From: Bacilli bacterium
GTDB lineage: Bacteria > Bacillota_I > Bacilli_A > RFN20 > CAG-826
DNA: 64,000 bases
NCBI GenBank assembly: GCA_045117995.1
Contig: JBGUOH010000003.1
Location: forward strand, 32,374 to 96,373
Direction of reading: 5' to 3'
Shown: piece after piece, positions 2,349 to 24,351 of the stretch
Position numbering within the stretch: position 1 is the first letter of the stretch
Layout: each line of letters begins with the position of its first letter
The notes under the pieces: generated by a model
Database searches by the model: none
The model's input: the letters and a program-made list of their open reading frames with translations, nothing else
What the model was told of the DNA's origin: nothing
Position numbers and translations under genes: made by a program

Positions 2349-2758
2349 ACAACCATATGGATTGGATGAAAGAATGCACATCTGGTGATTATCAAAAGTA
2401 TTATGAAAGAATGCACAAAGATGGATAGTATACGAGAAACTATTTTAAAAGTAATTAAAAATTACTAGTAGACATTTGAACACTGTGATGTGCGCGAAAA
2501 GACATCTTTGCTATTTAAATGGCGTATATGTGCATATAAGCAAAGCCCGTTTTCTAAACCTCTCAAAATTGTGATATCCATAAGCAGATTTAAGAATAGC
2601 TTTTAGCTTATTATTGAGGTCTTTTCTATTGCTATTGTCCGAAAGCTTTCAAATATTGAGTGGTTGCCTGTTTTTGAATGACTATATTAAAATTGAAAGG
2701 CAGTTATTATACGCACGTTAGTAAATGATAATATAGTATCGTATTCATATAACTCATT

Positions 2759-3328
2759 ATGTGTAGCAAAAGAAGAATAAAAGAACTAGCGGATAAGTAT
2801 TCTCCTCTTATTAGTTGGATAATAGAGTCTAACCAAATATATTTAGATATTAATGGTCCTATTAGGTGGGGTTTTAATTGGGATGATGATGTTAGAATAA
2901 CTGCTACTACAAATAGAAAGATAAGTATTATTTTAGTTAACCTTGCTTTTGTGGATGAACAATACCGCAACAAAGAATTGTTTGTAATTGAATATTTTCT
3001 TCTTCATGAAATGAGACATATCTATCAGCATATTCAAATAGCCAAATATAGAGAAGGCAAAAATGATGTTGGTAATCAATATATAGAAAAATGGATTAAA
3101 GAAAACGAAAACTATGAACAATCTGTTGATAAAGGCGGTAGAGAAAACATTAATTATCCAAAACAAGATTGTGAGTTAGATGCATACGCATTTGCATACA
3201 CTGTGATGCATTATAAATATCATGGGATATATGATCATTTCTTATATGTTCCGGAAATATACAAGAACGAATTGAGAGAAGATTTTGAAAAAGCTTTAAA
3301 AGAGTTTATTAAGTATCTAAAAGGTTGA
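2759..3328 (+). CDS. small putative zinc metallopeptidase-like protein (HExxH)
   Basis: 189 aa ORF with 'LLHEMRHIYQH' (HExxH motif); lies between TIR-ATPase gene and 1216-aa gene on same strand. Confidence 0.35.
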   Translation: MCSKRRIKELADKYSPLISWIIESNQIYLDINGPIRWGFNWDDDVRITATTNRKISIILVNLAFVDEQYRNKELFVIEYFLLHEMRHIYQHIQIAKYREGKNDVGNQYIEKWIKENENYEQSVDKGGRENINYPKQDCELDAYAFAYTVMHYKYHGIYDHFLYVPEIYKNELREDFEKALKEFIKYLKG

Positions 3329-3553
3329 TTGCATATCTTAAAAAAGATGTTAAAATCCACTGTGAAAAGTTCTTCTTGTAATCCATTGCGAGATGGATTT
3401 TGATGCTTGTCAACTATATGAATCTGTTGAATGAAGTGGGGTTTTAAAAATCTTGACCCCAATTAACTTAATAGAACCTCTAAAATATAATTTTTATCAT
3501 TGCCCAAAGTAATATGTTACTTACTCTTTGTATTTTTTTTATAAAATAGAGTT

Positions 3554-6500: not shown

Positions 6501-7204
6501 ACTATGCTCTAGAACACATCGTCAAAGAAATGGATTCTATGTATTTTACAGAAGAACTATCTAATTGCGAAATAGCGCTCTTGCCACACTTAAAACGGAG
6601 TATGAGGGACTATCCACTTGGCATGAAAAGACTTTTTTGGTCTCGTCCAGAAAGATTTGTTGAATTTTTGAAAAATATTTATTCAAAGAAAAATTCTTTT
6701 GAAGAAGAGAGTGTAGGACGATCTATCTATTTTGAACTCGAATTTTCGTTCAGTCATGCGTGCTTTGTTCCAACGGATTATTTATATCAAAAAGCGGATG
6801 AACTCTGTAACTGGGTGGAAGAGATATTGACCAGTTTAAAAAAAGAAGAAAAAGATTTTGCTCGCTTCGCTAAAAAAATCGTGGTTTCTACTTTATCTTG
6901 CTGTCCTTCCACATCGGAATATATTTGGCCGAGCACTGTTATTGCCGACTTGACGGAGAAGATAGCAGAAGATGGCTTTGACGACCCATATGAAGTGAGC
7001 AGAATATTCTATACCTCCTTCATTAATCGAAGAGGTGCTATTTGGGTTGATGATGGGACAGCTGAATTCGAATCTGCGACAAAATATAAAAAGTATGCCG
7101 ATTTTTACAGCGAAACACATAAAATCATTTCTAAAGCTCTTCATTATATTTCAGACAGTTTTCAAACCGATGGAGAGGAATTCAAAAAAAGAAAAAGATT
7201 CTAG
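3554..7204 (+). CDS. large hypothetical protein (1216 aa), no recognisable NTPase motif, mostly helical-looking
   Basis: Uninterrupted 1216-aa ORF with plausible RBS context; no Walker A found by eye; 3' end overlaps by 4 nt the stop of the convergent TOPRIM-like gene. Confidence 0.5.
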   Translation: MNMKLLDGTILNKIVSLNSKKAQVKIPLILSMLVREDSSNGAYIRIPNNNDVSLTGIDGKVINNSNESHFVPLGNSYWEIGTGEKFEEKIYNDFLKRNNDNNLKKEGFTFVSIACTKASEAKKNKLIKKIKKECKFKDFIIYDSTDLANWLSEHINVLLRFYELFEETPSLSGIDLLDTYWSNVSKSTNPCLTKEFVLYFNDGISSKIASDIKDSLSSGNIIKHISSKDYGKKFALLFTCVSILKSEDEDLICRTLVVRNQECLDFLLTSAKNLILLLDFNCFDVKLGLGINNTIIVFSNSNGDDSIRRLNNNSFTSAVEKLGVSESEAHRLAVESGYNYSVIIRRLAVNPVLRIPSWASNKNKRELIPLMLLGTINTGNDECLDILKNITYSDADNYVDELIFWGEMDDSPVSIEGSIFDACSRAELFEFINIDINNSKLRFLENYVIDGVVKKSKNESVLINIIDGFIYLSEKNYAWKNHFDRYLYDLLNEVEKNTKLKKRFDYTIYKLSRLNTSITLRYLKKVVGSNDESVLKTIIEDDSVEKYNTNTSRVYFLMTLEQCLVKKELVIEALETLLDLFVRTNNKIVEKEVIKVFSPMSSAIGLTNISSKNKANILFSYLNKIEDNLMFYEIMSNLSNGGDTSFVIGVNSDTIDYEQYQQTVTYDDVAYIKQKSSDWLLENAKEDKTRDAIETVLEGLYGCDENGCQHIIKQIEKFINANQKDDKNLAIANKELLRTINSITKYRNKGSAIKAYYGDLQRLYDKSIPKDLMIKYRYIFESNDFPIIKSSRLDSDDWYEKDEEERNRIRKLALAELFGKYSEDDVIDYLINVCKNYIYYVWNSVYDIAKDKNKCLKKLILADKPSAIKDFLFKYDICSIKELFENLSSNELNVVCRCLPLRQDIVDYISDTEYEKVFWENLEYFRTNDISEDILFEKLLKYNPMRLLSPYAYLMKSKDYKKGISLLSAIVDISKDRLIEDDHYALEHIVKEMDSMYFTEELSNCEIALLPHLKRSMRDYPLGMKRLFWSRPERFVEFLKNIYSKKNSFEEESVGRSIYFELEFSFSHACFVPTDYLYQKADELCNWVEEILTSLKKEEKDFARFAKKIVVSTLSCCPSTSEYIWPSTVIADLTEKIAEDGFDDPYEVSRIFYTSFINRRGAIWVDDGTAEFESATKYKKYADFYSETHKIISKALHYISDSFQTDGEEFKKRKRF

Positions 7205-7893
7205 TTGTTTTCTAACAGAACCACATACTCTTTCTTCATGTATTCAACATTCTCAAACAACCAAAAGATAACGTTTGAATAAGGCAACAACGAGTTATTG
7301 TCTTTCATAATAAAGTCCCAACTATCTTCAAATGTTTTTACATCTGGTGAAACACCTTTTAACTTTTCTAATAAGGCACCTAAGTTATTAGAATACTTAG
7401 CGAACATCTTTAACGCTAATAGTTTCTTTTGTTTATTGTTTGCGTTTTGAATATTGTCAAAAGCATGTTCTGCATTAGTTGAGACGTAATACAGTTTAAT
7501 CTTTCCACTCTTTAAGATAGTGGCGATGTTGTTTCTCTTGTTCTCTCTTTGCTGCTTTAATGGCTTAGGATTTTCACAAATAATTGATGTAGTAGTGTAC
7601 TTGATATTAGTAACACTATGGTCAACTTGGATTAGACTATCTGATAAGAAGCATCCATCTGTATCAATGATTTGAATAATTTCATCAAAGCTTTCGAAAT
7701 CATAAACCTTTTCCTTGTTCAACACTTCTTTGATATTTGTCTTATATCTATTTGCATACGATTTCTTAGTTAAGATATCGGTTTGAAAAGGAACAATTAC
7801 TAGATTGCTCTTATCAAATAATCCTTGTAGCACAGAAAAACGTTGTCTATCTGTTGCGCCTTCCACTAAAAACAAACAACGTTTCTTATTCAT
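7201..7893 (-). CDS. TOPRIM/OLD-like small nuclease-family protein (DUF4435 AriB-like / RloB-like)
   Basis: N-terminal 'LFLVEGATD' (TOPRIM Glu) and downstream 'IIQIIDTDGCF' (DxD); 230 aa; immediately downstream of AAA_21-type ATPase on same strand. Confidence 0.55.
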   Translation of the reverse strand: MNKKRCLFLVEGATDRQRFSVLQGLFDKSNLVIVPFQTDILTKKSYANRYKTNIKEVLNKEKVYDFESFDEIIQIIDTDGCFLSDSLIQVDHSVTNIKYTTTSIICENPKPLKQQRENKRNNIATILKSGKIKLYYVSTNAEHAFDNIQNANNKQKKLLALKMFAKYSNNLGALLEKLKGVSPDVKTFEDSWDFIMKDNNSLLPYSNVIFWLFENVEYMKKEYVVLLENN

Positions 7894-7900
7894 ATATCCG

Positions 7901-9277
7901 TTAATCTCCTAAATATAAAGCATTAATCATTTCTTCGGTTCTGACGGCATCATATAATTTCTTGTCGGATTCTTCGAAGTTGATTAAATACTTATAGTAC
8001 ATATCTCTTAAATTATTGGATTCTCTGACTTTATTGATCTGCACGAAAGCATCATTTCTATCAGTTGTAGTGAAGAAGAAATTCTTGTAATCAACCTTTT
8101 CTAAGATTCGCATATTGTGAGAATTAAATATTAATTGCCCCTTAGCGAAATTAGCAAAAGCATAAACCATTTCTCCTAGTAAGTATTCAAAAATGCCGCT
8201 ATCAAGTTCATCGATGACAATTAGGCATCCTTCATGATTAAAAGCATCAATGAAACCACTTAAGATAGATAAAATCTTTTTAATGCCATTAGATTCTAAA
8301 GATAAAGGAATTGGAGCGTCGTCACCTCTTTTGGAAACAAGAATGAATTGAACGCTCTTTGAATATTCTCTTTCTATTTCTGAATTAAGGATATGGAAAT
8401 CCAGTTTATAATTTGGTATTAATGACGGGATTACTTTGTTAATTTGATTAACAATTTTCTTAAATGAATTAAATTGATCGATTGTTAACACGGTTGGTGC
8501 AAAAGGCACAAATATGTCGCTAACAATTGGCATTTCCGTATTTGATTGCATTACTCTAAATCTCATACCGACATTTTGGTTGTCGTTAAAGTAGCTTAAG
8601 GAGTAGATGGCGAATTTGTAAGATGCAAAAGCCGACAAACTTAAGCAAATGATTTTGAAGTCTTCGTTGATATTTTTTGCTTTAGAAATAATGTCGATTG
8701 TTTTTCTGTTAAACAAAGACGAAAGAGGAGCTTGAGTATTTATATTGGATTTTGTTTCAATTCCAATAGTAAAGGAGTAGATGGCTCTTTCTTTGTCATT
8801 TAAAGCGTTGGCAAAAACGCCATTAAGTGAATTAGGACTATTGAACAAATAATAATTATTCTTTCTAGGCTCTTTTTTGCTGAAGAATGAAACTTTCTCC
8901 TTTTTGATATAAGAGGTAAGTCTATCATTTGATCCTAATTCGATAAGGTAATTAACATAAAATGTATTGTCGTTGCTATCAATTAAAAAATCGGCTTCAA
9001 CAGCGCAGCTATTTTCTCCGTTTGTGATGTAATTAGGATTGAATGAAAATAGTGGCGTTCCACACAAAATGTGTTGCAAGATTCTAAGCGCATCAACGGT
9101 TGTGGTTTTACCGCTGCCATTTTGTCCATAAATGCCTATAACAGAACCAAAGTCGTCATCTGAAAAATCTCCTCTTTCCAACTTTTTTTGTTCGGGAAAA
9201 AAGATTTCTCCGTTTTTAACGTTCTTGATGTTTTGAACTTTTAATCTTTCTAGTCTGACAGTTCCTAAATTGCTCAT
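7901..9277 (-). CDS. AAA_21/ABC-type ATPase (AriA/AbiLi/OLD-ATPase-like)
   Basis: Walker A 'GIYGQNGSGKTT', Walker B 'LIVIDELDSGI', H-loop-like 'FNSHNM' near C-terminus; 458 aa. Confidence 0.65.
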   Translation of the reverse strand: MSNLGTVRLERLKVQNIKNVKNGEIFFPEQKKLERGDFSDDDFGSVIGIYGQNGSGKTTTVDALRILQHILCGTPLFSFNPNYITNGENSCAVEADFLIDSNDNTFYVNYLIELGSNDRLTSYIKKEKVSFFSKKEPRKNNYYLFNSPNSLNGVFANALNDKERAIYSFTIGIETKSNINTQAPLSSLFNRKTIDIISKAKNINEDFKIICLSLSAFASYKFAIYSLSYFNDNQNVGMRFRVMQSNTEMPIVSDIFVPFAPTVLTIDQFNSFKKIVNQINKVIPSLIPNYKLDFHILNSEIEREYSKSVQFILVSKRGDDAPIPLSLESNGIKKILSILSGFIDAFNHEGCLIVIDELDSGIFEYLLGEMVYAFANFAKGQLIFNSHNMRILEKVDYKNFFFTTTDRNDAFVQINKVRESNNLRDMYYKYLINFEESDKKLYDAVRTEEMINALYLGD

Positions 9278-9561
9278 AATTGCTCCCTCTACATTTAAAT
9301 CTTATCATGTTCTATATAAAAAACAATAAAAAGCGTATAAAAAATACACATTTTTCTAAATAGACTAAAAAAATGAAGAGATACTTTATAAGTAAAGTAT
9401 AACTTGTTTCTAAAATATAAATGAGATTAAATATTCTGTAATTTAATACATTCCTCTATTATTTTCCTAAATACGTGCTATGATAGGGCTAGACCATCAT
9501 ATACGTATAATTTGAATCAAATATTAGAAATTGGTTCCAGGGAGTTTTTTAAATATACATT

Positions 9562-11703
9562 ATGAAAAAGATTAATTGTTTTGTTGCTACGCTGGTAGGG
9601 TTTTTTGCTATAGGTTTAATTGGTTGTAATGCTAATAAGTTACCTACTACACAATATGAGAAAGTTAAGTTTGCTTTTAACGGGGTGGAGAAATCATTTA
9701 AGTCTCCTAAAGTAGTTAAAAGAAACAAACCATTATTATTAAAAAGAAATAAGATAGGGGGATCTAATCCATCCAGTGCTCTAGATACTATTTTCAGCAT
9801 GTATAACGAAGAAGATATACGAGATGACTTCCTAGAAGAAGTAGAATACAACCAACCTCCAATGGTCCAGTTCCAATATATTAAAAAAGTCTTAGAAAAA
9901 GTTGGAAGTGGCTATGAATTTGGCAAGAAGTACTATGACACCATAACTGGCGACATGTATTTAGATGTTGATACTGGTCTAAAAAGAGAAGGTGACGAAT
10001 ATAAATATAACTACACCTTCACTTTAGGTATGGATATTAATATCGATGATAATAATCTCATTACCGCGGATGTATCATTTGATATTAATCTTAAAAAAGG
10101 TAGTGAGTCATATACCACGAAATGGTATGTAGGAATAGAACTAGACTATGATATGGCTAATAACTCTCCTAACTATACAATGAGTATGGTGACAGAGAAT
10201 GATGAAAGAGAACTACCATATTATGGAAGCTATACATATGAATATGATTATGTAGAAGTTAAGAACTCCGAAATTAATGAATGGAGAAAATTCTGCATGG
10301 ATAACGATCATCGATTAGTGAAAGACGCTAGTCATCAAGACTTCAATGCTTACGTTAATGAAGGGTGTGAATATAAAGTAGATGCTTGTTCTTGGTATAA
10401 GAATGGTACTTACTATAAGAACAAGAATGTTAGACAAAAAAGCGAAGCTGCTAAGACAATCGCTAATGCTTTGTTTACTAATTTAGGATTGAACACTAAT
10501 GAGATAGATGCTGATAGATTCTTTAATAAAGCCGGTACACAAAACAGTGTTCTTAAAACTTGCTATAACGATTTCTCTAAAATCGCTAAAGAAGACATTA
10601 TCTATGATCTAGTTTGTAAAGAAGAACAAGAAGAACAAAAACAAGAGATTGTGGCTATTAGAGCAATGAATGCTGATTTATCCGGAGGTGCTGGTAACTA
10701 CCAAGTTCCTGGTAATGTCACTATACGAGAACTACTCAGTGGTTTTGTTGATGAAAATGGAGAGAAACTAGCTATCCATTTATATTACATTGATCAAAAT
10801 TATGCTTTAGTTTCAGAAATCACTGATTTAGTGGCTTTAAGATTCTATATTAGACAACAAGATAACAATGAAGCTAAAGAAGTAAGTTTAGTTGATAGTT
10901 TGTCTGACATTATGGAGAGATATAAATTCACAAGTAGAAACCTCATCATTGCCTTTATGGATGGTCAAGGTATAGGTGGTGTGATGGACTTCATCTATTC
11001 AGGTGATTTACCAGATACATATGTTAAACCAACATTCCCTAAAGCCTTAGCGGACATCGGTGTTCCTGAATATGACGGGGAAAGAATTGAATATGGTACA
11101 CAAGAATTAAGTAAAGAGCCATATGTCTTAGAAATTAAAAATACTAGATATAGTGAATCACAAAACTATAAAAATAAGCTAAACGGTAATGGTTTTATTC
11201 TTGATGGTGGATATCTTGGTACATTTAAAGGTGCCTATTACCGCAAAGAAGCAGGTGATAACTATCTCTGGGTTAATTATGATGATAGTGATGCTAGTTT
11301 AGGCACTGTTATTATTCGTGCTTTCCACGAAGCTAAACCACAACAACAGGAAGATGACAGTATTAATTCCATCTCCATGGTCGGTGATTTCAATGACTGG
11401 GATGTCACAAGTGGTGGTTTGATGTTTACAAAAATGGGTGATGATTTATTCCGTTTAACTAGTGTGTATCTTCAACCAAAACAAGCATTCAAATTTGTTG
11501 TTAATAATGATTGGGGCACTAGAGGCGGCTATGGTTATAGTGATGTTCTTAATATTGCCGAATATGGTGAGTACTTAGCTGGTGGAACAAACGATAATAT
11601 CGTTGTCCAAGATCAAACAGTGTTTTTCGCAGTCGACGCTGTTATTTATGAAGGTAGAATAACATTTACTATTTCTGAATTTGAAGTTATAGCGCCTAAG
11701 TAA
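9562..11703 (+). CDS. lipoprotein with C-terminal carbohydrate-binding-module-like (CBM48/CBM20-like) domain
   Basis: Signal peptide plus lipobox 'AIGLIGC'; C-terminal 'ISMVGDFNDWD...FKFVVNNDWG' resembles glycogen/starch-binding E-set/CBM motifs. Confidence 0.5.
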   Translation: MKKINCFVATLVGFFAIGLIGCNANKLPTTQYEKVKFAFNGVEKSFKSPKVVKRNKPLLLKRNKIGGSNPSSALDTIFSMYNEEDIRDDFLEEVEYNQPPMVQFQYIKKVLEKVGSGYEFGKKYYDTITGDMYLDVDTGLKREGDEYKYNYTFTLGMDINIDDNNLITADVSFDINLKKGSESYTTKWYVGIELDYDMANNSPNYTMSMVTENDERELPYYGSYTYEYDYVEVKNSEINEWRKFCMDNDHRLVKDASHQDFNAYVNEGCEYKVDACSWYKNGTYYKNKNVRQKSEAAKTIANALFTNLGLNTNEIDADRFFNKAGTQNSVLKTCYNDFSKIAKEDIIYDLVCKEEQEEQKQEIVAIRAMNADLSGGAGNYQVPGNVTIRELLSGFVDENGEKLAIHLYYIDQNYALVSEITDLVALRFYIRQQDNNEAKEVSLVDSLSDIMERYKFTSRNLIIAFMDGQGIGGVMDFIYSGDLPDTYVKPTFPKALADIGVPEYDGERIEYGTQELSKEPYVLEIKNTRYSESQNYKNKLNGNGFILDGGYLGTFKGAYYRKEAGDNYLWVNYDDSDASLGTVIIRAFHEAKPQQQEDDSINSISMVGDFNDWDVTSGGLMFTKMGDDLFRLTSVYLQPKQAFKFVVNNDWGTRGGYGYSDVLNIAEYGEYLAGGTNDNIVVQDQTVFFAVDAVIYEGRITFTISEFEVIAPK

Positions 11704-13448: not shown

Positions 13449-13474
13449 CAAAAACACTAACATTTTATTTAGAT

Positions 13475-13502
13475 ACCACCTCAATAAATGGGGTGGTTTT
13501 TT
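13475..13502 (+). terminator. rho-independent terminator after aminotransferase
   Basis: 'ccacc-tcaataaatgg-ggtgg' stem-loop followed by tttttt. Confidence 0.6.
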
Positions 13503-13584
13503 CTTAAATAAAATGTCTATAAAATATTGAATTCAATTTACTAAAATGGTAAAATGAATGTGCCACTAAAGAAAGGGGGCTCCA

Positions 13585-13938
13585 ATGAAGATAGTTTACA
13601 GCAATAAAAAGACCGAAAAACTTTGCGAAGATTATAGTAAGGCCATCAAAGATCTTGGCAAAGAAGTTGCTAATAAACTATCTGATTTACTTAACGCCAT
13701 TGAATCGTTCCCAACATTGCTTGATCTATTCTATTTACCACAATATAGATTGCATGCTTTGGGACAAAACAGACAATATCAATACTCATTCGTTATTCAT
13801 AAAGGATATAAGTGGCGATTGATTGTTTATCCACTTGATGAAGGTGGAAATATCCTTAAAGATAAGAGTAACGAAAAAGAGATGTTGTCTAAGGCAGTTA
13901 TGGTAGAGATATTGGAGGTGAGTGAGCATTATGATTGA
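13585..13938 (+). CDS. HigB-like toxin (RelE/ParE superfamily, plasmid killer family)
   Basis: 'RLHALGQNRQYQYSFVIHKGYKWRLIV' matches the HigB/killer-protein consensus (RLE.LKG.R.G.YSIRIN.QWRI.F); 117 aa; overlaps downstream antitoxin-like gene. Confidence 0.55.
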   Translation: MKIVYSNKKTEKLCEDYSKAIKDLGKEVANKLSDLLNAIESFPTLLDLFYLPQYRLHALGQNRQYQYSFVIHKGYKWRLIVYPLDEGGNILKDKSNEKEMLSKAVMVEILEVSEHYD

Positions 13939-15013
13939 GAGAAAGAGAATTGTCAGCCATCCTGGTGTATATGTTAAAGACGCTATTGAATCGTTAGGGC
14001 TGAGTCAAAGTGAATTTGCATATAGAACAGGATTATCAGTTAAAAACGTTTCAACACTTATTAATGGAGAAAGCAATATCACTTTTGATGTTGCTCTTAA
14101 ATTAGCGGGCTTTTTCCACAATAGTGTTGAAGGTTGGATTAATCTTCAAACTAAATACAATATCTTCTTAAATGAAGAAACAAAGCAAAAAGAATATGAA
14201 GAAGATTGGCTTATCGCAAAGCAATTCGATAAAACTTTTGTTCTTAATCTTCTACATATTCAAATCGATTCTAAGAACAAAGAATCCACAATTGATGAAC
14301 TAAGAAAACGATTTAAGGTTGTTAATTTACAAAATCTAAAAAGCCCAGATATGTATGCATTCTGCAGAACAAGTGTTTCGAAAGATATTAATGAAAAGAT
14401 GATTATCATGAGAAACGCATGGATTTCATTAGCTGAAGAAGAGGCAAGACAAATGGAATGCTCTGAGTTTGATAAGGACATGATTACTTCAAATGTTAAA
14501 TATCTCAGATCACTCACTCTTAAGGAACCAGATGAAATGAGCTCTGAATTAACAAACTTCTTAGCTAAGTGCGGTGTTAAACTCGTTATTCTTCCATTCC
14601 TTCCTGGAAGCAACATCAGTGGTGTTACCAAATGGGTCGCTAGCGAAAACTGCGTTATGGTAGCGGTTAATGACTGTGGTAAAGACGCTGATAAGATTTG
14701 GTTCTCCATATTCCACGAACTCGGCCACGCCATCAAGAATCATAAAAGACATCTAACCATTTCTCTTAGCAAGAACAATATAGAAGACGCTGAGGAGATT
14801 GAAGCAAATACATTTGCTAGAGATTCTTTATTAGATAAAAAAGACTTTGAAAGCTTCGTTAGAAAACAGGACTTCTCGATATCAAGCATTAAAGCCTTTG
14901 CTAGATCTCAAGATGTTGCTCCATTTGTGGTCATCGGCAGACTTCAAAAAGAGAAAATAATCGGTTGGGACAAATATCAAAACTATAAAACTAAATACGA
15001 AATTGGTTTTTAA
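13922..15013 (+). CDS. HigA-like HTH (XRE) antitoxin fused to ImmA/IrrE-family metallopeptidase domain
   Basis: N-terminal 'SHPGVYVKDAIESLGLSQSEFAYRTGLSVKNVSTLINGESNIT' (HigA/XRE HTH); C-terminal 'IFHELGHAIKNH' HExxH as in the COG2856 ImmA/IrrE family. Confidence 0.6.
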   Translation: MSIMIERKRIVSHPGVYVKDAIESLGLSQSEFAYRTGLSVKNVSTLINGESNITFDVALKLAGFFHNSVEGWINLQTKYNIFLNEETKQKEYEEDWLIAKQFDKTFVLNLLHIQIDSKNKESTIDELRKRFKVVNLQNLKSPDMYAFCRTSVSKDINEKMIIMRNAWISLAEEEARQMECSEFDKDMITSNVKYLRSLTLKEPDEMSSELTNFLAKCGVKLVILPFLPGSNISGVTKWVASENCVMVAVNDCGKDADKIWFSIFHELGHAIKNHKRHLTISLSKNNIEDAEEIEANTFARDSLLDKKDFESFVRKQDFSISSIKAFARSQDVAPFVVIGRLQKEKIIGWDKYQNYKTKYEIGF

Positions 15014-15196
15014 AGAAGATATCTAACTATTTTCTAGAATAATGATGAAAATCTTAAAAAACTCCGTTTAACTTCTAATAATTAGCCATTTATAATATTT
15101 TTTCTTGATAAAACCTCAATAAATTCGTAGACTAAACGAGTAGTGCGCATCAAATATTGAATTAGATGATGCTTTCGGAAGGAAACAATACAGCAG

Positions 15197-15694
15197 ATGA
15201 AGTATTTTCGACTAATCGTTTTCTCACTTATCTCAGTTATTTTTGTTTACCTTATACCTTTTTTAAATATTGTAGTCGTCAGTTCAAACGCTGAAGGCAT
15301 AATTGCTATTGTTAGTGTTTGCTCTGTTTTATCAAGTGCCGCTGCAGCTTCTTCTTGCTCAGCAAAGTTTTTAGGAAAAAAAGAGAATGGATGGCTTGCA
15401 GCCTTAATCATTCCGTCTCTTTCAATCTCTGTGTTTGTTTTCTGTGCTTGCTTGGCGTATCAATATTTCAATATATTGCTAATGCATGTTAGCTTTTTAA
15501 TTATCTTGACTGTCGTTGCCAATTTGCTAACTTTGGCTCTTTTAATCATTTCTTATTTCCTCGGATTTGATCCTACACCTGATGTAACAGCAGAAGAATC
15601 AAAAGAGGCTAAAGAGTTTGCTGAAAAAGCTAGTGGCGACGGTGAAACTAGTGGAGGTATCAATGTAACTAGAAAAGGAGGCGCCAAACAATGA
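15197..15694 (+). CDS. small multi-pass membrane protein, first gene of five-gene operon
   Basis: 165 aa, several hydrophobic segments, charged Gly-rich C-terminus; stop overlaps start of DGQHR gene (ATGA). Confidence 0.45.
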   Translation: MKYFRLIVFSLISVIFVYLIPFLNIVVVSSNAEGIIAIVSVCSVLSSAAAASSCSAKFLGKKENGWLAALIIPSLSISVFVFCACLAYQYFNILLMHVSFLIILTVVANLLTLALLIISYFLGFDPTPDVTAEESKEAKEFAEKASGDGETSGGINVTRKGGAKQ

Positions 15695-16809
15695 GTAAAA
15701 TAACAATTCCGGCATTTGAAATTGAACAACCAGTCGGTAAGTTTTACGTAGGAAAAGTTAAATACTATGATTTGATAGATTTGTGTTCTAAAGACCTTAG
15801 TAATATCAGTGGAACACAATATGACATATTCCAAAGAAATCTTGACTATACAAGGCTTCCTGCTCTTAAAAGATACATGGAATACTCAAGAGCCTCTTTT
15901 CCAAATGGTATAGTGCTTACTGCTAATTTACCATTCACTTATGAAAACGGAATGATTACTGTTGAAAAGAAAAAAGACGCGTTCTTTATTATAGATGGCC
16001 AACATCGTGTTGAAGCTTTGAAATATTATCATGGCAACAAAAAATTTGAAGTCTGTGTTGTTATTTTTGAACAAACAGACAAAGACATGAGAGCCGAGCT
16101 GTTTACAGTCATTAACAGCGAACAAAAGAAAGTGAATCCTACTGTTAAGTTAAACCTTAGAGGTAACGATATCGTAGATACTCCTGAAAAGGTTGTAAGG
16201 AAGATAGCGATTGCTTTGAATGAATCAAAGGAATCTCCTTTCTATCACCGCATTCGCTTTGGTGATGAATACACAAGAAGAGACTTAATTAAAATCTCCT
16301 TGGCTTCATTTGCTAAACCAATTATTTCCGCGATTTATTATCCAGATAATTTCTTCTCGCTTAAAGACAAATTAATTGAATCAAATAACGATAGAAGTGC
16401 TCTTGAAGAATTTGGATATGTTCATAAAAAATGTCTTTGGAATTACTACTTCAATAACAATGACGAAATTATATATTTAATTCTATTAAATTATTTTGGT
16501 GCGTTTGCAGATTTGTTTGAAAAAGATTGGAAATCACAAAAATCTATCTTGATGAAAACAACAGGTTTTAACGCAATGTTTATGTTGCTAAATGACTTGC
16601 TTAAGAATGCTAATGAGGAAGAAGAAAAAGACTTTAGCTATGAACATTTCTATAACCTCATTACACCATTAAAAATAATGGAAGGAACCTTCGTTCTTGA
16701 TAAATGGGGTGTAGGCCTTGCGGCATCGAGCAAATTATATAGAGAATTCACAAGAATACTTAACATGTCAGCTCAATATAAAGAGTTCGATGATTATAAC
16801 GAAGAATAA
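15691..16809 (+). CDS. DGQHR domain protein (DndB-like / ParB-like nuclease superfamily)
   Basis: Literal 'FFIIDGQHRVEAL' motif; 372 aa. Confidence 0.6.
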   Translation: MSKITIPAFEIEQPVGKFYVGKVKYYDLIDLCSKDLSNISGTQYDIFQRNLDYTRLPALKRYMEYSRASFPNGIVLTANLPFTYENGMITVEKKKDAFFIIDGQHRVEALKYYHGNKKFEVCVVIFEQTDKDMRAELFTVINSEQKKVNPTVKLNLRGNDIVDTPEKVVRKIAIALNESKESPFYHRIRFGDEYTRRDLIKISLASFAKPIISAIYYPDNFFSLKDKLIESNNDRSALEEFGYVHKKCLWNYYFNNNDEIIYLILLNYFGAFADLFEKDWKSQKSILMKTTGFNAMFMLLNDLLKNANEEEEKDFSYEHFYNLITPLKIMEGTFVLDKWGVGLAASSKLYREFTRILNMSAQYKEFDDYNEE

Positions 16810-16823
16810 TTAGTATTTAATCT

Positions 16824-17213
16824 ATGGAACCAATTAAAATAACTTATTGTTATCCCGATAGAACCAAAGAGGGACGAGAACCAGGAGAGTCTTCATTCAT
16901 AGTTTCTGATAGCAATATTGAAACCATTATTGGAGAATCAAATCCTATCGACTGTGTTTGTGACACTATGAAATTGGTAATCATGGAAAAATGTGATAGA
17001 AAGAAACTAAACGAACAAACTGTTTCTTTTTTCAGAGACTTAAATTCTTTCGCAGATTTTGTTAATAGAACCATCATCAACATATTCACGCAAGAGAATG
17101 AGCTTCGATATAGTTCGGTAGAAGTTAATAACATTTTGAAAGAAATAAATTCTGAGTCTGCCAAATTAGCAGATAGTTTTTTTGACGTCTATAATGATTG
17201 CAACAAGGAATAG
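16824..17213 (+). CDS. hypothetical small protein in DGQHR operon
   Basis: 129-aa ORF 14 nt downstream of DGQHR gene; no motif recognised. Confidence 0.3.
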   Translation: MEPIKITYCYPDRTKEGREPGESSFIVSDSNIETIIGESNPIDCVCDTMKLVIMEKCDRKKLNEQTVSFFRDLNSFADFVNRTIINIFTQENELRYSSVEVNNILKEINSESAKLADSFFDVYNDCNKE

Positions 17214-17784
17214 TATGATTGACCGCAAATACTTGTTAGAACTATATAATGCTAGAAAAAGCCAAGCCTGCGTAGCTTTTGCCTTTGACAATGATGGTAA
17301 AAGATATTTCGCTGTAAATGGTAAAGACACAAAATGCCCCGACCAGCTCGAACCCATTTTGAAAGTTTTTGGCGATTCTCCGATTTTTTGCGGTTACAAT
17401 TTTTCATTTACGGTGCTTAGACCATTTGTTAGTAAAAAAACATTAGATGACACATACAATCTTATTGATAATTTGGATTATTCTGGTTCTTCTGTTGGAT
17501 TCGATCTCTTATCTTTTAGATTATATAGGAAGTTCCCGATTAACTATTTATTTGATAATCGACATTTTTCATGCGCTGAAAAGAAAATTGTTGGTTATTG
17601 TGAGTTCATGGATATAACGATTGGGACTTTATATACAACTAAAACGCCGTGCTATTATTGCCTCCCTGTTATTGAATCTGTCGAGTTTCTTACGAAGAAA
17701 TTAGAAAAAAGAACAGTTAAGAAGAGCGGCAGTGCTTATTCTACAGGCGATGGATTGAGTTACTTTTTGTACAAAAGGTATTAA
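17182..17784 (+). CDS. putative zinc-dependent deaminase-fold protein (CDA-like C-A-E ... P-C-x-x-C)
   Basis: 'FSCAEKK' followed 24 aa later by 'TPCYYC', the spacing/signature of cytidine-deaminase-like zinc sites; true start may be ATG at 17215 (RBS aaggaa). Confidence 0.35.
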   Translation: MTSIMIATRNSMIDRKYLLELYNARKSQACVAFAFDNDGKRYFAVNGKDTKCPDQLEPILKVFGDSPIFCGYNFSFTVLRPFVSKKTLDDTYNLIDNLDYSGSSVGFDLLSFRLYRKFPINYLFDNRHFSCAEKKIVGYCEFMDITIGTLYTTKTPCYYCLPVIESVEFLTKKLEKRTVKKSGSAYSTGDGLSYFLYKRY

Positions 17785-17790
17785 TTTGTT

Positions 17791-19053
17791 ATGAGCTGGA
17801 TAAAATTTTCTAGAAAATTTAAGACAATCGTTGGAAACGATGTAATTACAATCTCAAATGGTTCTATCTTTTTCACCAGTGAAGACGGCGAGACACATTC
17901 TATATTTAGCAAGGATTTATATAATTCTATTATTGATGCTGCCGAAATAAAAAGTTTTAATGGTGACATATTGCTTAAGAAAGATACTGTCGAAATTAGA
18001 ATTGATGAAGTCAATGGTAGCGCTCGTGTGCCATTCCGTTATAATAATGAACGCATTAATCATTTTTTTGTAACCTCTGGCCAAACTTTTTTTGATTCTA
18101 TTCAAGTATCAAAAGCCTCTATTGAGTACTTAATTAGTTATTTTGAAAACAATGAGCCCAATAATGCAGTTATGGCGAAATATATGCTCGATAGGATTTT
18201 CGATCCAGATTCTGAGGAAGAAAACCCTAGTGTTAGAGAACCGATAAATATAGTAGGTAGAGTCCTATCTTACATTTTGAGCATTCCCCGTTGCGTTGTT
18301 GTCTCTAGAAAAAAGAATGGCCGCTCTTTGCAAATTAATACTATCTTAGAAAATTGTGAATCACTACTAATGTATATCGCGATGAATTACGGGTGTGCCA
18401 TAAAATTGGGAATTGATAAAAGCTTCTTAAAAAGAAGAGGTTTCTTGCCACGCATGACATACACAATGCCGATAATTAAATGCAAAGATGTATTTGTCGA
18501 AGAGAAATACATTCAGGCAACAGCTACAAATAGTTATGACACTAAGTTTCTGTTCTTTTATCAAATTTTGGAAAGAATCGCTCAAAAAATGGCTCCTTCT
18601 TTGTTCATTGCTGAAATCAGAGACGTCGTCTCTACAAGGTCAAGAGTGTCTGACTATGACAAGTTCGTTGACATGAAAAACAGAATAAATGGTGATAACG
18701 AACAACAATTGCTAGAAAAATTTCTGCGCTCAAAGGTTTTATTAAGCACACTAATGCCTATTATTCCCCCTTCTTTGATTACATATTTTGAGAATACTCT
18801 GCCACGTTTTATTGATCAAAAAATAGAAGCGAAAATCAATTTTAGTAATCAGGCTGATTATTCTAGAACGATGTCTAAAAGAATTTACTGGATTAGAAAC
18901 GCTATTGTTCACGCTAAAGAAGAGAATTTTAAGAAAAAAGCCAAAGAAACACCTTTTGATTGGGCCGTAGATGGCGAGCTGCTCATTCCTGAACTCGCGA
19001 TGCTGAAGTTGATAGTCGATTTTTCAATAAAAGTTTATTCTTCTCGAAAATAG
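17791..19053 (+). CDS. hypothetical protein with C-terminal HEPN-like R-x4-H motif
   Basis: 'YWIRNAIVHAKEE' (R-N-x-x-x-H) near C-terminus as in HEPN RNases; 420 aa; last gene of operon. Confidence 0.35.
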   Translation: MSWIKFSRKFKTIVGNDVITISNGSIFFTSEDGETHSIFSKDLYNSIIDAAEIKSFNGDILLKKDTVEIRIDEVNGSARVPFRYNNERINHFFVTSGQTFFDSIQVSKASIEYLISYFENNEPNNAVMAKYMLDRIFDPDSEEENPSVREPINIVGRVLSYILSIPRCVVVSRKKNGRSLQINTILENCESLLMYIAMNYGCAIKLGIDKSFLKRRGFLPRMTYTMPIIKCKDVFVEEKYIQATATNSYDTKFLFFYQILERIAQKMAPSLFIAEIRDVVSTRSRVSDYDKFVDMKNRINGDNEQQLLEKFLRSKVLLSTLMPIIPPSLITYFENTLPRFIDQKIEAKINFSNQADYSRTMSKRIYWIRNAIVHAKEENFKKKAKETPFDWAVDGELLIPELAMLKLIVDFSIKVYSSRK

Positions 19054-19246
19054 CGTGTAGAGCCAACTGGTTCTGAACACGAATATAAGATTTGGAAAGT
19101 TGAATATATCTCCTTGATATATCCTCTTTTTCTCGTCTCTTACAAATCTTTTGCGTTGTCACAATACTTAATTTATAATTAAAACAAATAACCAAACATA
19201 AGTCGTATTGACTATGTCCAGTCCATAATGGGGAGAGAACTTTTAT

Positions 19247-20422: not shown

Positions 20423-21160
20423 ATGCGTTGCCCAAAATGTGGCGCTAACGTGCCAGACGGTAAGAGCAAATGCCCTTACTGCTTTTCACCATTAAACGCA
20501 TATTCTGAACCAGTTCCTAATCGTGCTAATTATGCATCTGTGAGTCCTGCTGCTCAAAGTCAAAGACCATCTCTCCAAGCAAGTGTTCCTGATATTTATG
20601 ACAAAAATGTCCGTGGAATAGTTATCGTCAACAAACCAGAGGGTACTGGTACAGGATGTATAATTTCTAAGGATGGCCTTATCTTAACTAATGCGCATAT
20701 GGCATTTAGTAAGAAAGAAAAAGCTTTTTACTCCGCTGTGGAAGTTATCATTGATAATGTTTCATACACTGGTCAACTAATAAATGCTAATGTCCCACAT
20801 GGGGATAATGACGTTGCTTTGCTCAAAGTTGATGGTACATTTGATCATATTTTAAAGTTTGGTGATTCATCAACCCTTAGAAACGGTGATGAAGTCATTG
20901 CTATTGGTAATTCATTGGGCTTGGGTATGAGCGTCGCTCGCGGCATTGTCTCTGACACACGAAAGAGTGTCGAGGGTTCAATATTGATTACAAGTGACGT
21001 GGCCACTAACCATGGTAACTCAGGCGGTCCATTATTTAATACACGTGGTGAAGTTATCGCCCTTTGTGTTTCCGGTATAGACGGCGCTAAAGGCATGAAT
21101 TTTTTCATTCCAATCAATCGCGTTCTCGATATTTTAGCAGCATGGGGGTATAAATTCTAA
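20423..21160 (+). CDS. zinc-ribbon + trypsin-like (S1/HtrA-like) serine protease
   Basis: N-terminal 'CPKCG...CPYC'; protease motifs 'LTNAHM' (His), 'DVALLKV' (Asp), 'GNSGGPLFN' (Ser); 245 aa; start 4 nt after the SPFH-gene stop. Confidence 0.65.
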   Translation: MRCPKCGANVPDGKSKCPYCFSPLNAYSEPVPNRANYASVSPAAQSQRPSLQASVPDIYDKNVRGIVIVNKPEGTGTGCIISKDGLILTNAHMAFSKKEKAFYSAVEVIIDNVSYTGQLINANVPHGDNDVALLKVDGTFDHILKFGDSSTLRNGDEVIAIGNSLGLGMSVARGIVSDTRKSVEGSILITSDVATNHGNSGGPLFNTRGEVIALCVSGIDGAKGMNFFIPINRVLDILAAWGYKF

Positions 21161-24100
21161 TGCCAGAAATTCTCATCAAGTGTCCGCACTGTGGTGGTGA
21201 GAAGTTAGTTGATCAGAATGAAGAATTTGTAAAATGCCAGTACTGTCATAAAACATTCCCTTTGAGGGAATCAAAAACTGGCCTTAACGCTCAATTACAA
21301 AGTCAAATTAATGACGCTATTAATAAGAGAAACAAGTTTGAATTTAATGAAGCAACAATCATTCTAGAAGATCTTGTTTCTACTTACCCTGATGTCGCGG
21401 AGATATATTTCCAATTACTCCTTTCGGATTATGGTATTTCTTATGTAAGTGAAGATAGTAACATTACAGAGAAGCCAGTAATTTCTAGTGTCCAAAAGGA
21501 ATCAATATTCTCTAAAGAGTATTACCATAAACTAGAATCTCTTTTAAGTGAGTTGCCAAGCACACTTAAAAACTATAAAGAGCGATTAGAGGAGATTGAA
21601 AAACTCCGTGAAGAATCACTCAAGACAATGAAAGAAATCGAACCTTTCGATATCTTTATTTGTTATAAAAGAACAACAGGTGACAGTGGTTTAACATTTG
21701 ATAGTAAAACCGCTGATAAGTTATATAGAAAGTTTTCTGAATGGGGACTTAATGTCTTCTATGCTGAAGAAACTCTCTATCGTAAATACGCTGGTAAAGC
21801 CTTCGAACCAGTTATTTGTAGTGCTTTATTAAGCGCTAAGTTATTTGTCTTGGTGTGTGCCACACCAGATCATAAAGAATATCTCTTAGCCCCTTGGGTT
21901 AAAAACGAATGGGCTAGATTTAAAAAGAGAGTGGAAAACGAAGTGGACGTTAAATTACGTTTACTCCCTGTCTTTGATAATGGCTTCACTCCAGAAAAAT
22001 TACCACGTGAATTAGAAGGCATTGAAGGCATTAAATTGGACGATGAATTTGATAACAACGTCTATAGCCTTATTAGTTCTTTAATTCCAAAGGAAAAGAA
22101 GAGCAAATTTAATGAAATTAAAGTCCAAGCCAATAAAGTTGGTTCTTTATCCGTTAAGAAAGAAGAAATCGTTGCTAGAAAGTTTACAGGCTTTAAAGAA
22201 AAAGAATTAAACAATTTAGAAAAGACTGACTTCAATATGGCGGTTGCTGATATGAAGATTAACAATAACAGCAAATACAAAGCCGCCTATAAGAAGTTAT
22301 GTCGTTTAACAGAAACTAATAAGTTTAACTTTGAAGCTAACTTAGCAAAGCTAAAATGTAACTTTAAGATTCCTAATGATGATAGTTTGGTTAACACATC
22401 ATTATGGAGAGTTGATGACATCAACCGTATGAATAATGACTTCCTCGCTTTAATGGAAGCGGGTGGTGAAGACTGCGCTAGAGTGAGAAAAGCCATGGTG
22501 CAGATGCTTAAGAAGTCATTCAATGATAATCCAAACAAATTCGCTAGTGAGTTAAAGAAAGAAGAAAGTACATTCTTAACCATTGCTAAAACATTTGAAG
22601 ATAGAAATGAAATGTTTGATTATGCAGTGGAGTTTGAAAAACCATACTTTGATTTACTCAATAACCGCGCTCAACACTCTAAACTTAAAGACGATGATAT
22701 TTTAAACATCGCTAATAAGTTATTTAGACGTATCTACTCTAACTATGAAGAAAAGGGTGCTCATCAAATCTTTAACTTATACCTTAGATCTTTCAAAATC
22801 TTATCCGCAGGCAATAAGAAAGAAAATAAGCACCTCGTGGATGAGTTTATTGACCTAGCGTTAGAGATTAACAAGTTAGATGTTGACTGCCTATGGTATC
22901 GATTCTGCTTCGATCTAGACTGCTTAGGGGCTAATGAATTTACCCTTGCTAAGAAGCTAAAGAAAGAAAACTTCGTGGAGTTCGATATCAAGAAAAAGAC
23001 TATCGATGATAAGCTTAAAAAAGCTAATCTCTATTACTTCATGATTAAGGCTATTGAAAGTGGCTATAAAATGGACTTCACTAGTCCATCATGTAATAAC
23101 AACTATTTCAATACCATCTTAAAAGCCACATGCATCATGGTTAATAAGAAAAAGAATAAGGAAATCACTAAAAAGATATTCACTCTTCTTGCTTCTTTAA
23201 CCGGCAGTGGTTCCACGAGTGACGCTAATACAATTAAGTTATTAATGACCATCGGTGATCGTTTATTACTCGAAAAGAGATATAAAGAAGCCAAACGTTA
23301 TTATGAAGAAATACTAAATATTGATGAAACTGATTGTGAAGCAAGATGGGGTATCGTTAAATGCGATATTAAGAAACCATCTAACTACAGCGTTTTATTC
23401 TATAGAAAATCACTTAATGATGTCCCATCATTTAGAATGCTTATCGCTGTTCACGATGAAAAACATCCTGACGAAGTAGACCATTATTTAGCGTTCTATC
23501 AAGCTATTGAAGCCATCAAGGGCGAACGCAGCAAAACCAATAGGCAACTCAAAAAAGCTTTTAAGAATAATCATCAGAGATTGATGAAAATAGATTTCCC
23601 ATATGATACACCTGTGAAAGATATCATCATCTCTATTGGTAATGGTACATTAGCTCAACAAGCCTTAAAGCCTAAGAGAGCGCCAAAACAATCTTCACAA
23701 GGCACATATAATAATCCAACTCACTATTCTTTCGCTAAAGAAAGAGTGAGCCTGGTATTCAATATCTTGTTCATATTAACCGCATTTGTGTCAGTGATTT
23801 TGCTAAAACCAGAATCTTCTTTCGTAGCGATATTTGCTTTAGCAATCATCGCAGCGATTATGTCGAGGGCCGGGTATGGTCATTTAGCGACAGGTAGAAG
23901 TCCATATAAGCCATTAATCATTGTCTTTGGCGTATTGTCGTTCATACCATATATCGTGGTTATTAGTATTCTATTTACCTCTAATGCAAATGCGATCAAT
24001 GACATAACTAAAACACAAGCGTTTGTTTACTTTGTGGTTGGTTTAGTATTCGCATTCATTTACTTCCTACTCACAATTATTAGAAAAACAAAACCAAGTT

Positions 24101-24351
24101 CTCAAGATATGGATAATTCCAATGTCTTCACTTATTACCTATTGAAGTTTATGGCGATTACCGGTTCTGTATTAGGTGGTTTCTATGCTTCAATGTCCAT
24201 TGGTGATACTGGGACGATATTTGGTATCACATTAGATACTTCTAATGTCTTCGTTAAATTCATGGTAACAGCTGGTCATCTTTACTTAATACCTGTTCTC
24301 TTTGTTTTAACGAATTTGATTTTAAGACTTATTAGGGGGCGTGGATTATGA
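21160..24351 (+). CDS. zinc-ribbon - TIR domain - long helical region - C-terminal multi-pass membrane domain protein
   Basis: N-terminal 'CPHCGG...CQYC'; TIR-like 'FDIFICYKR...NVFYAEE...LLAPWVKNEWARF'; last ~300 aa strongly hydrophobic (several TM helices); 1063 aa; overlaps flanking genes. Confidence 0.55.
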   Translation: MPEILIKCPHCGGEKLVDQNEEFVKCQYCHKTFPLRESKTGLNAQLQSQINDAINKRNKFEFNEATIILEDLVSTYPDVAEIYFQLLLSDYGISYVSEDSNITEKPVISSVQKESIFSKEYYHKLESLLSELPSTLKNYKERLEEIEKLREESLKTMKEIEPFDIFICYKRTTGDSGLTFDSKTADKLYRKFSEWGLNVFYAEETLYRKYAGKAFEPVICSALLSAKLFVLVCATPDHKEYLLAPWVKNEWARFKKRVENEVDVKLRLLPVFDNGFTPEKLPRELEGIEGIKLDDEFDNNVYSLISSLIPKEKKSKFNEIKVQANKVGSLSVKKEEIVARKFTGFKEKELNNLEKTDFNMAVADMKINNNSKYKAAYKKLCRLTETNKFNFEANLAKLKCNFKIPNDDSLVNTSLWRVDDINRMNNDFLALMEAGGEDCARVRKAMVQMLKKSFNDNPNKFASELKKEESTFLTIAKTFEDRNEMFDYAVEFEKPYFDLLNNRAQHSKLKDDDILNIANKLFRRIYSNYEEKGAHQIFNLYLRSFKILSAGNKKENKHLVDEFIDLALEINKLDVDCLWYRFCFDLDCLGANEFTLAKKLKKENFVEFDIKKKTIDDKLKKANLYYFMIKAIESGYKMDFTSPSCNNNYFNTILKATCIMVNKKKNKEITKKIFTLLASLTGSGSTSDANTIKLLMTIGDRLLLEKRYKEAKRYYEEILNIDETDCEARWGIVKCDIKKPSNYSVLFYRKSLNDVPSFRMLIAVHDEKHPDEVDHYLAFYQAIEAIKGERSKTNRQLKKAFKNNHQRLMKIDFPYDTPVKDIIISIGNGTLAQQALKPKRAPKQSSQGTYNNPTHYSFAKERVSLVFNILFILTAFVSVILLKPESSFVAIFALAIIAAIMSRAGYGHLATGRSPYKPLIIVFGVLSFIPYIVVISILFTSNANAINDITKTQAFVYFVVGLVFAFIYFLLTIIRKTKPSSQDMDNSNVFTYYLLKFMAITGSVLGGFYASMSIGDTGTIFGITLDTSNVFVKFMVTAGHLYLIPVLFVLTNLILRLIRGRGL

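Follow-up and report, generated by a model that had tools for sequence, protein, structure and literature searches.

Five packed genes in the window

We analyzed a 64,000-nucleotide (nt) stretch of DNA from a Bacilli bacterium (assembly GCA_045117995.1, contig JBGUOH010000003.1), here called the window, and give the coordinates of its features as positions within it. Our study region, 15197-19053, holds five plus-strand open reading frames (ORFs) that overlap or lie no more than 14 nt from their neighbors in the ORF list. We labelled these genes A to E; the pair C and D encodes a small protein and a putative zinc deaminase, and is the main subject of this report.

Gene A (15197-15694, +) encodes a 165-amino-acid (aa) protein with four hydrophobic segments, predicted to be transmembrane, and an acidic, charged tail. 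Gene B (15691-16809, +; 372 aa) encodes a DGQHR-domain (ParB/DndB-like) protein, with the DGQHR motif at nt 15994-16008 (residues 102-106). The product of gene C (16824-17213, +; 129 aa) is acidic (isoelectric point [pI], 4.6) and fast evolving, and is a putative antitoxin or regulator. Gene D (17215-17784, +; 189 aa) encodes a basic protein (pI 8.8) with CAE at nt 17572-17580 (residues 120 to 122) and PCYYC at nt 17647-17661 (residues 145 to 149). Gene E (17791-19053, +; 420 aa) carries RNAIVH, a candidate HEPN-type motif, at nt 18895-18912 (residues 369 to 374), within a C-terminal part spanning nt 18514-18936.

An earlier sequence-only reading of this DNA had described five packed plus-strand genes, and this description stands: the stop codon of A and the start codon of B share 4 nt (ATGA), and the remaining gaps are 14 nt (B-C), 1 nt (C-D), and 6 nt (D-E). 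Its motif calls were right in substance and off in detail. Both D motifs are present, but the spacer between them is 22 aa rather than 24 aa, and RNAIVH, reported as part of a WIRNAIVHA sequence ending protein E, lies 45 residues before the C terminus. D most likely starts at ATG 17215 and is 189 aa long rather than the 200 aa that would result from an alternative TTG start at 17182, with a 32-nt overlap with C, because an AAGGA ribosome-binding site precedes the ATG and an independent gene call on contig L001, which is near-identical to the window, agrees.

All five proteins are singletons in clustering at 90% identity, and the combination of A to E was found in this genome only. NCBI records exist for four of the five proteins (all but the 189-aa form of D), on a 318-kb contig. 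A promoter-like site (15068-15096, +; TTAACT-17-TATAAT, 10 of 12 consensus positions matched) lies in the 183-nt gap 5' of gene A and is a candidate promoter of the array. Promoter and terminator scans of the region gave site counts not above those of shuffled controls. An Rfam scan matched no RNA, so that the curated families offer no candidate for an AvcI-like RNA antitoxin.

A divergent zinc deaminase and its small partner

A word-indexed search of 5.8 billion proteins returned only five relatives of D. Exhaustive profile searching with HMMER across 1.84 billion cluster representatives widened the family to 66 clusters at E values of 1e-3 or below, nearly all of 180 to 215 aa. In an alignment of 59 members, the mean column identity is 11%, C120, P145, C146, and C149 are invariant, and E122, K124, and C19 are conserved in at least 90% of sequences. 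The conserved residues form the [C]xE...PCxxC zinc-deaminase signature. Conservation this strong at C120, E122, P145, C146, and C149, against so low an overall identity, means that the motif in D is not a chance match.

D itself has no above-threshold match in Pfam, NCBIfam, or PADLOC; three PHROG dCMP-deaminase families touch its motif region at E values of about 0.01. When the 59 members were scanned singly, sub-threshold deaminase matches ranked first (best E value, 1.9e-4), to dCMP_cyt_deam_1 in 20 members, MafB19-deam in 8, OTT_1508_deam in 7, and APOBEC_N in 3. Deaminases also top the list in a profile search of PDB sequences with the D family.

We built an AlphaFold2 model of D from the 59-sequence alignment, as input of five homologs gave an unusable model (pLDDT 44). 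The model has the deaminase alpha/beta fold, with the motifs at the N termini of helices 2 and 3, and classical CDAs are among its top structural matches. An insert of about 85 residues, peculiar to the D family, is predicted between strand 2 and the catalytic helix, and beyond the PCxxC helix the model contains beta strands throughout. From this all-beta C-terminal part, D presumably falls in the C-terminal-hairpin division of deaminases, with CDA, DYW, and the bacterial toxin deaminases; the classification we used is reportedly that of Iyer et al. 2011. A search of viral folds in BFVD gave no significant match. Judged by its conserved signature and predicted fold, D is a divergent zinc deaminase of the CDA superfamily that lies outside every curated family searched. 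The sequence-only reading had called D a deaminase from its motifs and had named the lack of a deaminase fold and zinc site as grounds for dropping the idea; a CDA-like fold is predicted, and the zinc signature is conserved across the family.

Loci encoding D are sparse. A scan of 185,579 species genomes with a closer D alignment found one truncated or degenerate remnant only (L007), a metagenome scan found four loci, a scan of viral contigs found none, and tblastn of D and of E against plasmids gave no match. We rejected an origin of D among polymorphic toxins because we identified no trafficking domain and because the partner, C, is encoded upstream.

All retrievable D-family loci were then surveyed for neighbors of D. 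A small ORF of 107 to 160 aa lies directly 5' of D, overlapping it or at most 3 nt away, in 12 distinct loci: the window (together with L001), L002-L005, L006, L008, L009, L011, L012, L013/L014, L015-L017, L018, L027/L028, and L029. Outside the window, BLAST, a BLAST chain, or a C-family hidden Markov model (HMM), which matched L027 at 8e-12 and L029 at 5e-13, established that the upstream ORF is a homolog of C in 10 of these 11 loci; L018 is too fragmentary. The C family has no invariant residue, and C matched nothing in Pfam, NCBIfam, PADLOC, PHROGs, or PDB. The two partners differ in charge, with pI values of 4.1 to 5.5 for 10 of 11 C proteins and of 8.0 to 9.5 for the D proteins.

Two fusions extend this picture. 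P0070 (354 aa; L026 127-1191) is a natural C-D fusion in which residues 15 to 137 match the C-family HMM (E value, 2.1e-8) and the deaminase domain follows; it provides indirect, sequence-level evidence for an interaction between C and D. In P0055 (454 aa; L013 5676-7040), a D-type deaminase is fused to the abortive-infection domain AbiH. C-D is thus a conserved unit, toxin-antitoxin-like in its two-gene architecture, in which D has C as its small, obligate, translationally coupled upstream partner.

The unit is not tied to the other genes of the array. No DGQHR gene is present in the available sequence of the 11 other C-D loci, and E is present in just one other C-D lineage (L002-L005). In that sister lineage, as seen in L002, Abi_2 and an unrelated 274-aa protein stand in place of A-B. 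The neighbors of C-D pairs include type I restriction-modification genes, Abi_2, membrane Ser/Thr kinases, and DUF6680.

Several features of individual C-D loci deserve mention. Genes for Ser/Thr protein kinases lie just 5' of C-D in two unrelated loci (L011 4577-5995 and L013 3547-5247), and the N-terminal half of the L011 kinase is hydrophobic and membrane-like. An ORF encoding a 166-aa lipoprotein-like product lies immediately 5' of C in L011 and L015. Such an arrangement may represent a kinase-linked subtype of the C-D module. In L009, a 306-aa protein encoded 5' of the pair (95-1015) carries LRNYIH, an Rx4H motif; it had no profile match, and its hhalign comparison with E was not significant. 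In L002, one extra T in a T-run (4320-4335) splits the deaminase gene into 68 and 138 aa. The same split was called in L002 to L005, which come from different samples (the T-run itself was read in L002), and C and E are intact there. The split D of this lineage could be a fixed pseudogene or, as the homopolymer would allow, a phase-variable tract in a toxic gene.

The flanking genes and the hotspot

By its profile matches, B is a true DGQHR-domain protein (TIGR03187; ParB/Srx superfamily), as the sequence-only reading had assigned it. It scores above cutoff against TIGR03187 (130 bits; cutoff, 58.85) and Pfam DndB (38.7 bits; cutoff, 29.1), and carries the literal motif. Its scores fall below those of the equivalog models, at 149 against a cutoff of 450 for TIGR04172 and 64.3 against 300 for DpdB (NF041060), so that in profile searches it does not reach equivalog level for the DndB/DpdB regulators. 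The PADLOC DpdB model matches B at 7e-17, GmrSD_N (DUF262) matches below cutoff (22.7 bits; E value, 1.2e-4; cutoff, 33.2), and PDB sequences gave nothing meaningful. Of the ORFs that we scanned between 0 and 47 kb of the window, none was a dnd or dpd gene, in agreement with the earlier statement that the DGQHR gene is outside its canonical context.

Protein A has no family match in Pfam, NCBIfam, PADLOC, or PHROGs, and one gene caller annotated just its C-terminal 70 aa on contig L001. The relatives of B point to a recurrent partnership. A tblastn search of B against 72,556 plasmids returned 34 records, and we inspected six of them, from Bacillus thuringiensis, Acinetobacter, Roseateles, Pontibrevibacter, Rhizobium leguminosarum, and R. 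rhizogenes. The six homologs are 24 to 36% identical to B (36% in B. thuringiensis), and directly 5' of every one lies an ORF of 157 to 207 aa with three or four hydrophobic segments, overlapping or at most 12 nt away. No C-, D-, or E-like gene is near any of the six. Two are named "DNA phosphorothioation-associated DGQHR protein 1" and adjoin phosphorothioation-dependent restriction or dndBCD genes; the remaining four adjoin restriction-modification systems or DNA methyltransferases. In BLAST, B matches these six proteins at E values of 1e-18 to 1e-69, compared with 3.5e-4 for the genuine DndB of a Rhizobium plasmid.

Because sequence similarity among the A-type proteins is nearly nil, we take their equivalence from position and architecture. 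On these grounds, A-B is probably a copy of a widespread, uncharacterized two-gene cassette of a small protein with three or four transmembrane segments and a protein of the "phosphorothioation-associated DGQHR protein 1" type. In three plasmid or phage records (L020 2062-5051, L021 4584-7134, and L025 2997-4906), a methyltransferase gene lies directly 5' of, and co-directional with, a DGQHR gene or a membrane-protein/DGQHR pair. Such neighbors suggest a link of DGQHR genes to DNA methylation status, one that has no counterpart in the window.

E is an orphan with a single homolog, P0007 (61% identity), in searches of 5.8 billion proteins that included a profile search at E values up to 10. P0007 is encoded directly after C-D in the L002-L005 lineage, and the D-E gap is 5 to 6 nt across both E lineages. 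Residues 242 to 382 of E match positions 197 to 313 of the 341-position PADLOC DzbB model (E values, 2.3e-6 to 2.9e-7; P0007, 2.3e-8); its N-terminal 240 residues are unmatched by this profile. Pfam MauJ matches E at 5e-4 and P0007 at 4e-5, both below the 28-bit cutoff, and PDB sequences gave nothing meaningful. The RNAIVH motif is identical in P0007, a conservation that weighs little between two sequences. No Pfam HEPN family matched E even at E values up to 10, and in an hhalign comparison with an Abi_2 HEPN protein only KRIYWIRNAIVHA was aligned with IRIQVIRNIINHY, at a probability of 0.7%. The earlier claim that E is a HEPN protein thus keeps its Rx4-6H motif and lacks a HEPN profile match; at the motif level, HEPN identity is plausible. 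We found nothing relevant in the literature on DGQHR with deaminase, on DzbB, or on MauJ with HEPN.

What follows E helps define its boundaries. A sequence of about 150 nt that leads into the SPFH gene is conserved in three lineages, at about 19096-19246 in the window, 6030-6168 in L002, and 1530-1666 in L006. This SPFH leader, which gave no Rfam match above noise, could be a promoter or a regulatory leader, judging by its conservation. It starts right after the stop codon of E in the window and in L002, and right after the stop codon of D in L006, where E is missing. Since the leader abuts E in two lineages and D in the third, E is a discrete presence/absence cassette. As E is intact in L002-L005, where D is frameshifted, E appears to need no functional D. 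Other loci fill the position after D differently: L008 has a different 375-aa gene with no family matches (3731-4858), in whose product an HD-like "HDYGY" motif was seen by eye; L010 has no plus-strand ORF of at least 50 aa in the 738 nt after D; and in L027 a housekeeping aminotransferase gene follows.

The array sits in a defense-rich part of the window. The first 28 kb are rich in defense-type genes, which encode a Schlafen-like helicase, two AAA_21 ATPases, a HigA/M78 protein, the products of A to E, SPFH, a trypsin-like protease, and a TIR protein. An AsnC-aminotransferase pair breaks this series, and 31 to 46 kb holds the housekeeping genes pyrG, guaA, purB, purA, glmS, gdhA, and glmM. 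We rejected a phage origin of the cluster, as there were no viral matches and housekeeping genes lie on its flanks. The site just 3' of the aminotransferase is a hotspot: C-D is found there in the window, L002, L008, and L012, with different companions each time, and in L027 C-D lies on the opposite side of the aminotransferase.

Between the aminotransferase and gene A lies a HigBA-like module (13585-15013). The earlier reading of the surroundings was right about the SPFH-TIR operon downstream, but this module is an atypical HigBA: its toxin-like ORF matches Pfam HigB only at an E value of 0.067. Its "HigA" is a 363-aa protein that combines a HigA-type helix-turn-helix with an M78 (ImmA/IrrE) peptidase and matches PADLOC PD-Lambda-2_B at 6.6e-23, as well as the RmrA and CapP models. 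This cassette is flanked by a direct, colinear repeat of about 75 nt (13458-13533 and 15093-15163), with a 32-nt block at 81% identity and a 15-nt block at 93%, equally spaced. The first copy comes after the aminotransferase terminator, the second lies ahead of gene A, and the post-aminotransferase region of L002 shares part of it. From this arrangement, the repeat looks like a cassette junction or an insertion scar in the hotspot.

Two further observations concern genes beyond the array. The region 5' of the AsnC-aminotransferase pair (15-11703) encodes a 777-aa Schlafen-group-3-like helicase, proteins of 1216 and 713 aa without family matches, and, on the minus strand, an AAA_21 (AbiEii/OLD-like) ATPase with a 230-aa partner. 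The 1063-aa TIR/TPR protein (21160-24351) has a faint MauJ match at residues 771 to 807 (E value, 0.045), which may be coincidental.

Reading the array against rivals and known systems

The gene structure, the domain and fold assignments of B and D, and the patterns of pairing and modularity are what we observe. On balance, we lean towards reading the array, which lies between the aminotransferase gene and the SPFH-protease-TIR operon, as three cassettes, A-B, C-D, and E, stacked in a defense-island hotspot, with C-D as a toxin-antitoxin-like deaminase defense module. The five genes are probably co-transcribed yet do not form one evolutionarily coherent system. Some observations pull the other way. 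The packing is as tight as in a true operon, with no convincing internal terminator or promoter, and functional cross-talk is possible. E was seen only beside C-D, in two of two lineages. The A-type membrane proteins are alike in topology with almost no sequence similarity. Most C-D loci come from short metagenomic contigs, on which a partner encoded farther away may have escaped notice. Finally, the C-D fusion suits an autoinhibitory regulator as well as it suits a classical labile antitoxin.

The rival explanations rank lower because the co-occurrences they require are absent outside this genome. The sequence-only reading had coupled a DGQHR sensor to a deaminase and a HEPN effector in one system, and had proposed neighborhood conservation as the check. 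Such a system, in which B and its membrane partner would sense foreign or modified DNA and control D and E, fits the operon-like packing, the one promoter-like site 5' of A, and the lack of a convincing internal terminator, and ParB-like proteins recurrently partner HEPN and other effectors (PMC3710099, PMC3632139). It is nonetheless improbable: the neighborhoods did not bear the coupling out, since the five-gene set is confined to this genome, B homologs occur without C, D, or E (none of six has any of them), and C-D recurs without B (a DGQHR gene in none of the 11 other loci, in available sequence, and Abi_2 with the 274-aa protein instead of A-B in L002) and mostly without E. An obligate C-D-E trio, with two effectors under one regulator and A-B as a separate neighbor, would account for the restriction of the E family to the position directly 3' of C-D in both lineages, and the 375-aa gene in the same post-D slot of L008 suggests a variable third slot. 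Against it stand L006, where the SPFH leader comes directly after D, L010 with no ORF there, L027 with the aminotransferase next, and the intact E beside a frameshifted D in L002-L005, so we regard the trio as unlikely.

Quite improbable, in our judgment, is a Dazbog-like system of B and E (a ParB-like NTPase with a DzbB-like effector) into which C-D was inserted. The C-terminal part of E does match DzbB (2.9e-7; P0007, 2.3e-8) and B weakly resembles DUF262/GmrSD_N (1.2e-4), but this last match stays below cutoff (22.7 against 33.2 bits), B has no DzbA match in PADLOC, only about one third of the DzbB profile is covered, and B and E are not adjacent. Moreover, P0007 in L002 has no ParB-like neighbor, and the relatives of B are paired with a membrane protein and have no DzbB-like neighbor. 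Least credible, with very little in its favor overall, is that D is an ordinary metabolic deaminase (of nucleoside or nucleotide salvage, or of RNA modification) lying by chance in a variable region, and C an unrelated small ORF. The best sequence matches of D-family members are to the generic dCMP/cytidine deaminase zinc-binding profile, and classical CDAs are among the top structural matches. However, the family is rare and patchy (66 clusters in 1.84 billion representatives, one remnant in 185,579 species genomes), sits in variable, defense-rich contexts, is strictly paired with, and in one case fused to, the fast-evolving C, is fused once to AbiH, and is apparently pseudogenized in one lineage; a housekeeping role would not be expected for such a gene.

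Under the three-cassette reading, we infer the biochemical activities, the neutralization of D by C, and the defense role of each cassette as follows. C would bind D and hold it inactive, in the manner of a type II antitoxin or an autoinhibitory sensor, until phage infection removes or overrides C and releases D. Once released, D would deaminate cytosine, more probably in nucleic acid than in the nucleotide pool, and the infection would be aborted. We favor nucleic acid as the substrate because the closest structural relatives of D are polynucleotide deaminase toxins and D is basic. A-B would be a DNA- or nucleotide-directed ParB-like NTPase or nuclease that is tethered to, or regulated by, its membrane partner. 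E would be a lineage-restricted add-on, a HEPN-like RNase serving as an independent or back-up suicide effector. More tentatively, and as a possibility we rate as doubtful, D may found a compact (about 190 aa) family of cytoplasmic polynucleotide cytosine deaminases that restrict phage DNA or RNA in an APOBEC-like way, gated by the fast-evolving sensor or inhibitor C.

Deaminases already serve as effectors in secreted toxins (DddA, SsdA) and in a small number of phage defenses that act on nucleotide pools. New here is a family of CDA-fold deaminases outside the curated libraries searched, with a small, obligate partner, C, in defense islands. New also are the unnamed partnership between small membrane proteins and DGQHR proteins, a widespread arrangement exposed by comparing the relatives of B, and the orphan DzbB-related protein E. 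If our reading of C-D is right, a stand-alone, immunity-paired CDA-fold deaminase would be a new effector class of intracellular bacterial immunity. Should its substrate prove to be DNA or RNA, D would parallel APOBEC-type restriction in prokaryotes and offer base editing a small new enzyme scaffold. The locus also illustrates that a tight "operon" in a defense hotspot can be a stack of independent cassettes, which bears on the calling of multigene systems from a single genome. The sequence-only reading had called the combination uncharacterized. The five-gene set was found in this genome only, but a ParB-like protein with HEPN is not an uncharacterized theme, because links of ParB-like/DGQHR proteins to HEPN and other nucleases have been in the literature since 2013 (PMC3632139, PMC3710099).

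Among known systems, the deaminase toxins of SsdA-SsdAI, DddA-DddI, DddB, and the BaDTF families are close to D. They are C-terminal domains of secreted type VI secretion system or polymorphic toxins, and their immunity genes lie downstream. D differs in being a stand-alone 189-aa protein, cytoplasmic as far as its sequence predicts, with the insert of about 85 residues and a partner that is encoded upstream or fused N-terminally. It has no identified trafficking domain, and its similarity to SsdA/DddA-type toxins is below every family threshold. AvcID and RADAR RdrB would resemble the proposed C-D module as defense-island-encoded deaminase effectors restrained until phage infection. AvcD joins a dCMP/dCTP deaminase to a P-loop NTPase domain, and RdrB, which acts on adenosine, has a different deaminase fold; D has neither a P-loop NTPase nor RdrB-type domains. 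AvcD is controlled by an RNA antitoxin, whereas the partner of D is a protein, with no Rfam-detectable RNA nearby. AvcID is a toxin-antitoxin system in which AvcD acts on the nucleotide pool (PMC10511110).

For B, TIGR04172 is the best full-length model, and the plasmid proteins named after it share the small membrane partner upstream. B differs from DndB and DpdB in scoring far below their equivalog cutoffs, in its marginal similarity to a real DndB (E value, 3.5e-4), and in the absence of dnd or dpd genes from those stretches of the window that we scanned. The two components of Dazbog are DzbA (DUF262, a ParB-like NTPase) and DzbB (PMC10952713). The likeness lies in the C-terminal part of E, which by its profile match is related to that of DzbB, and in a ParB-superfamily gene within the same array. 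The differences are that B is not DzbA-like, that C-D separates B and E, and that the relatives of neither keep the pairing. With the HEPN families that partner ParB-like proteins (such as MAE_28990, RiboL-PSP-HEPN, and Abi2; PMC3710099), E shares the hRNxhxH motif, as in the Abi2/Swt1 type. Like them, E is encoded in a defense island and in the same array as a ParB-like gene, but it has no Pfam HEPN match and reached an hhalign probability of only 0.7%.

In fused toxin-antitoxin defense of the CapRel(SJ46) type, an antitoxin-like domain autoinhibits the toxin and senses phage. The chemistry differs, that of a pyrophosphokinase there and of a deaminase here, and in the fusion described here C is N-terminal. 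By analogy, P0070 as a C-D fusion and the pairs in which C and D are separate proteins may mirror this type of defense, and C is fast evolving, as would be expected of a sensor.

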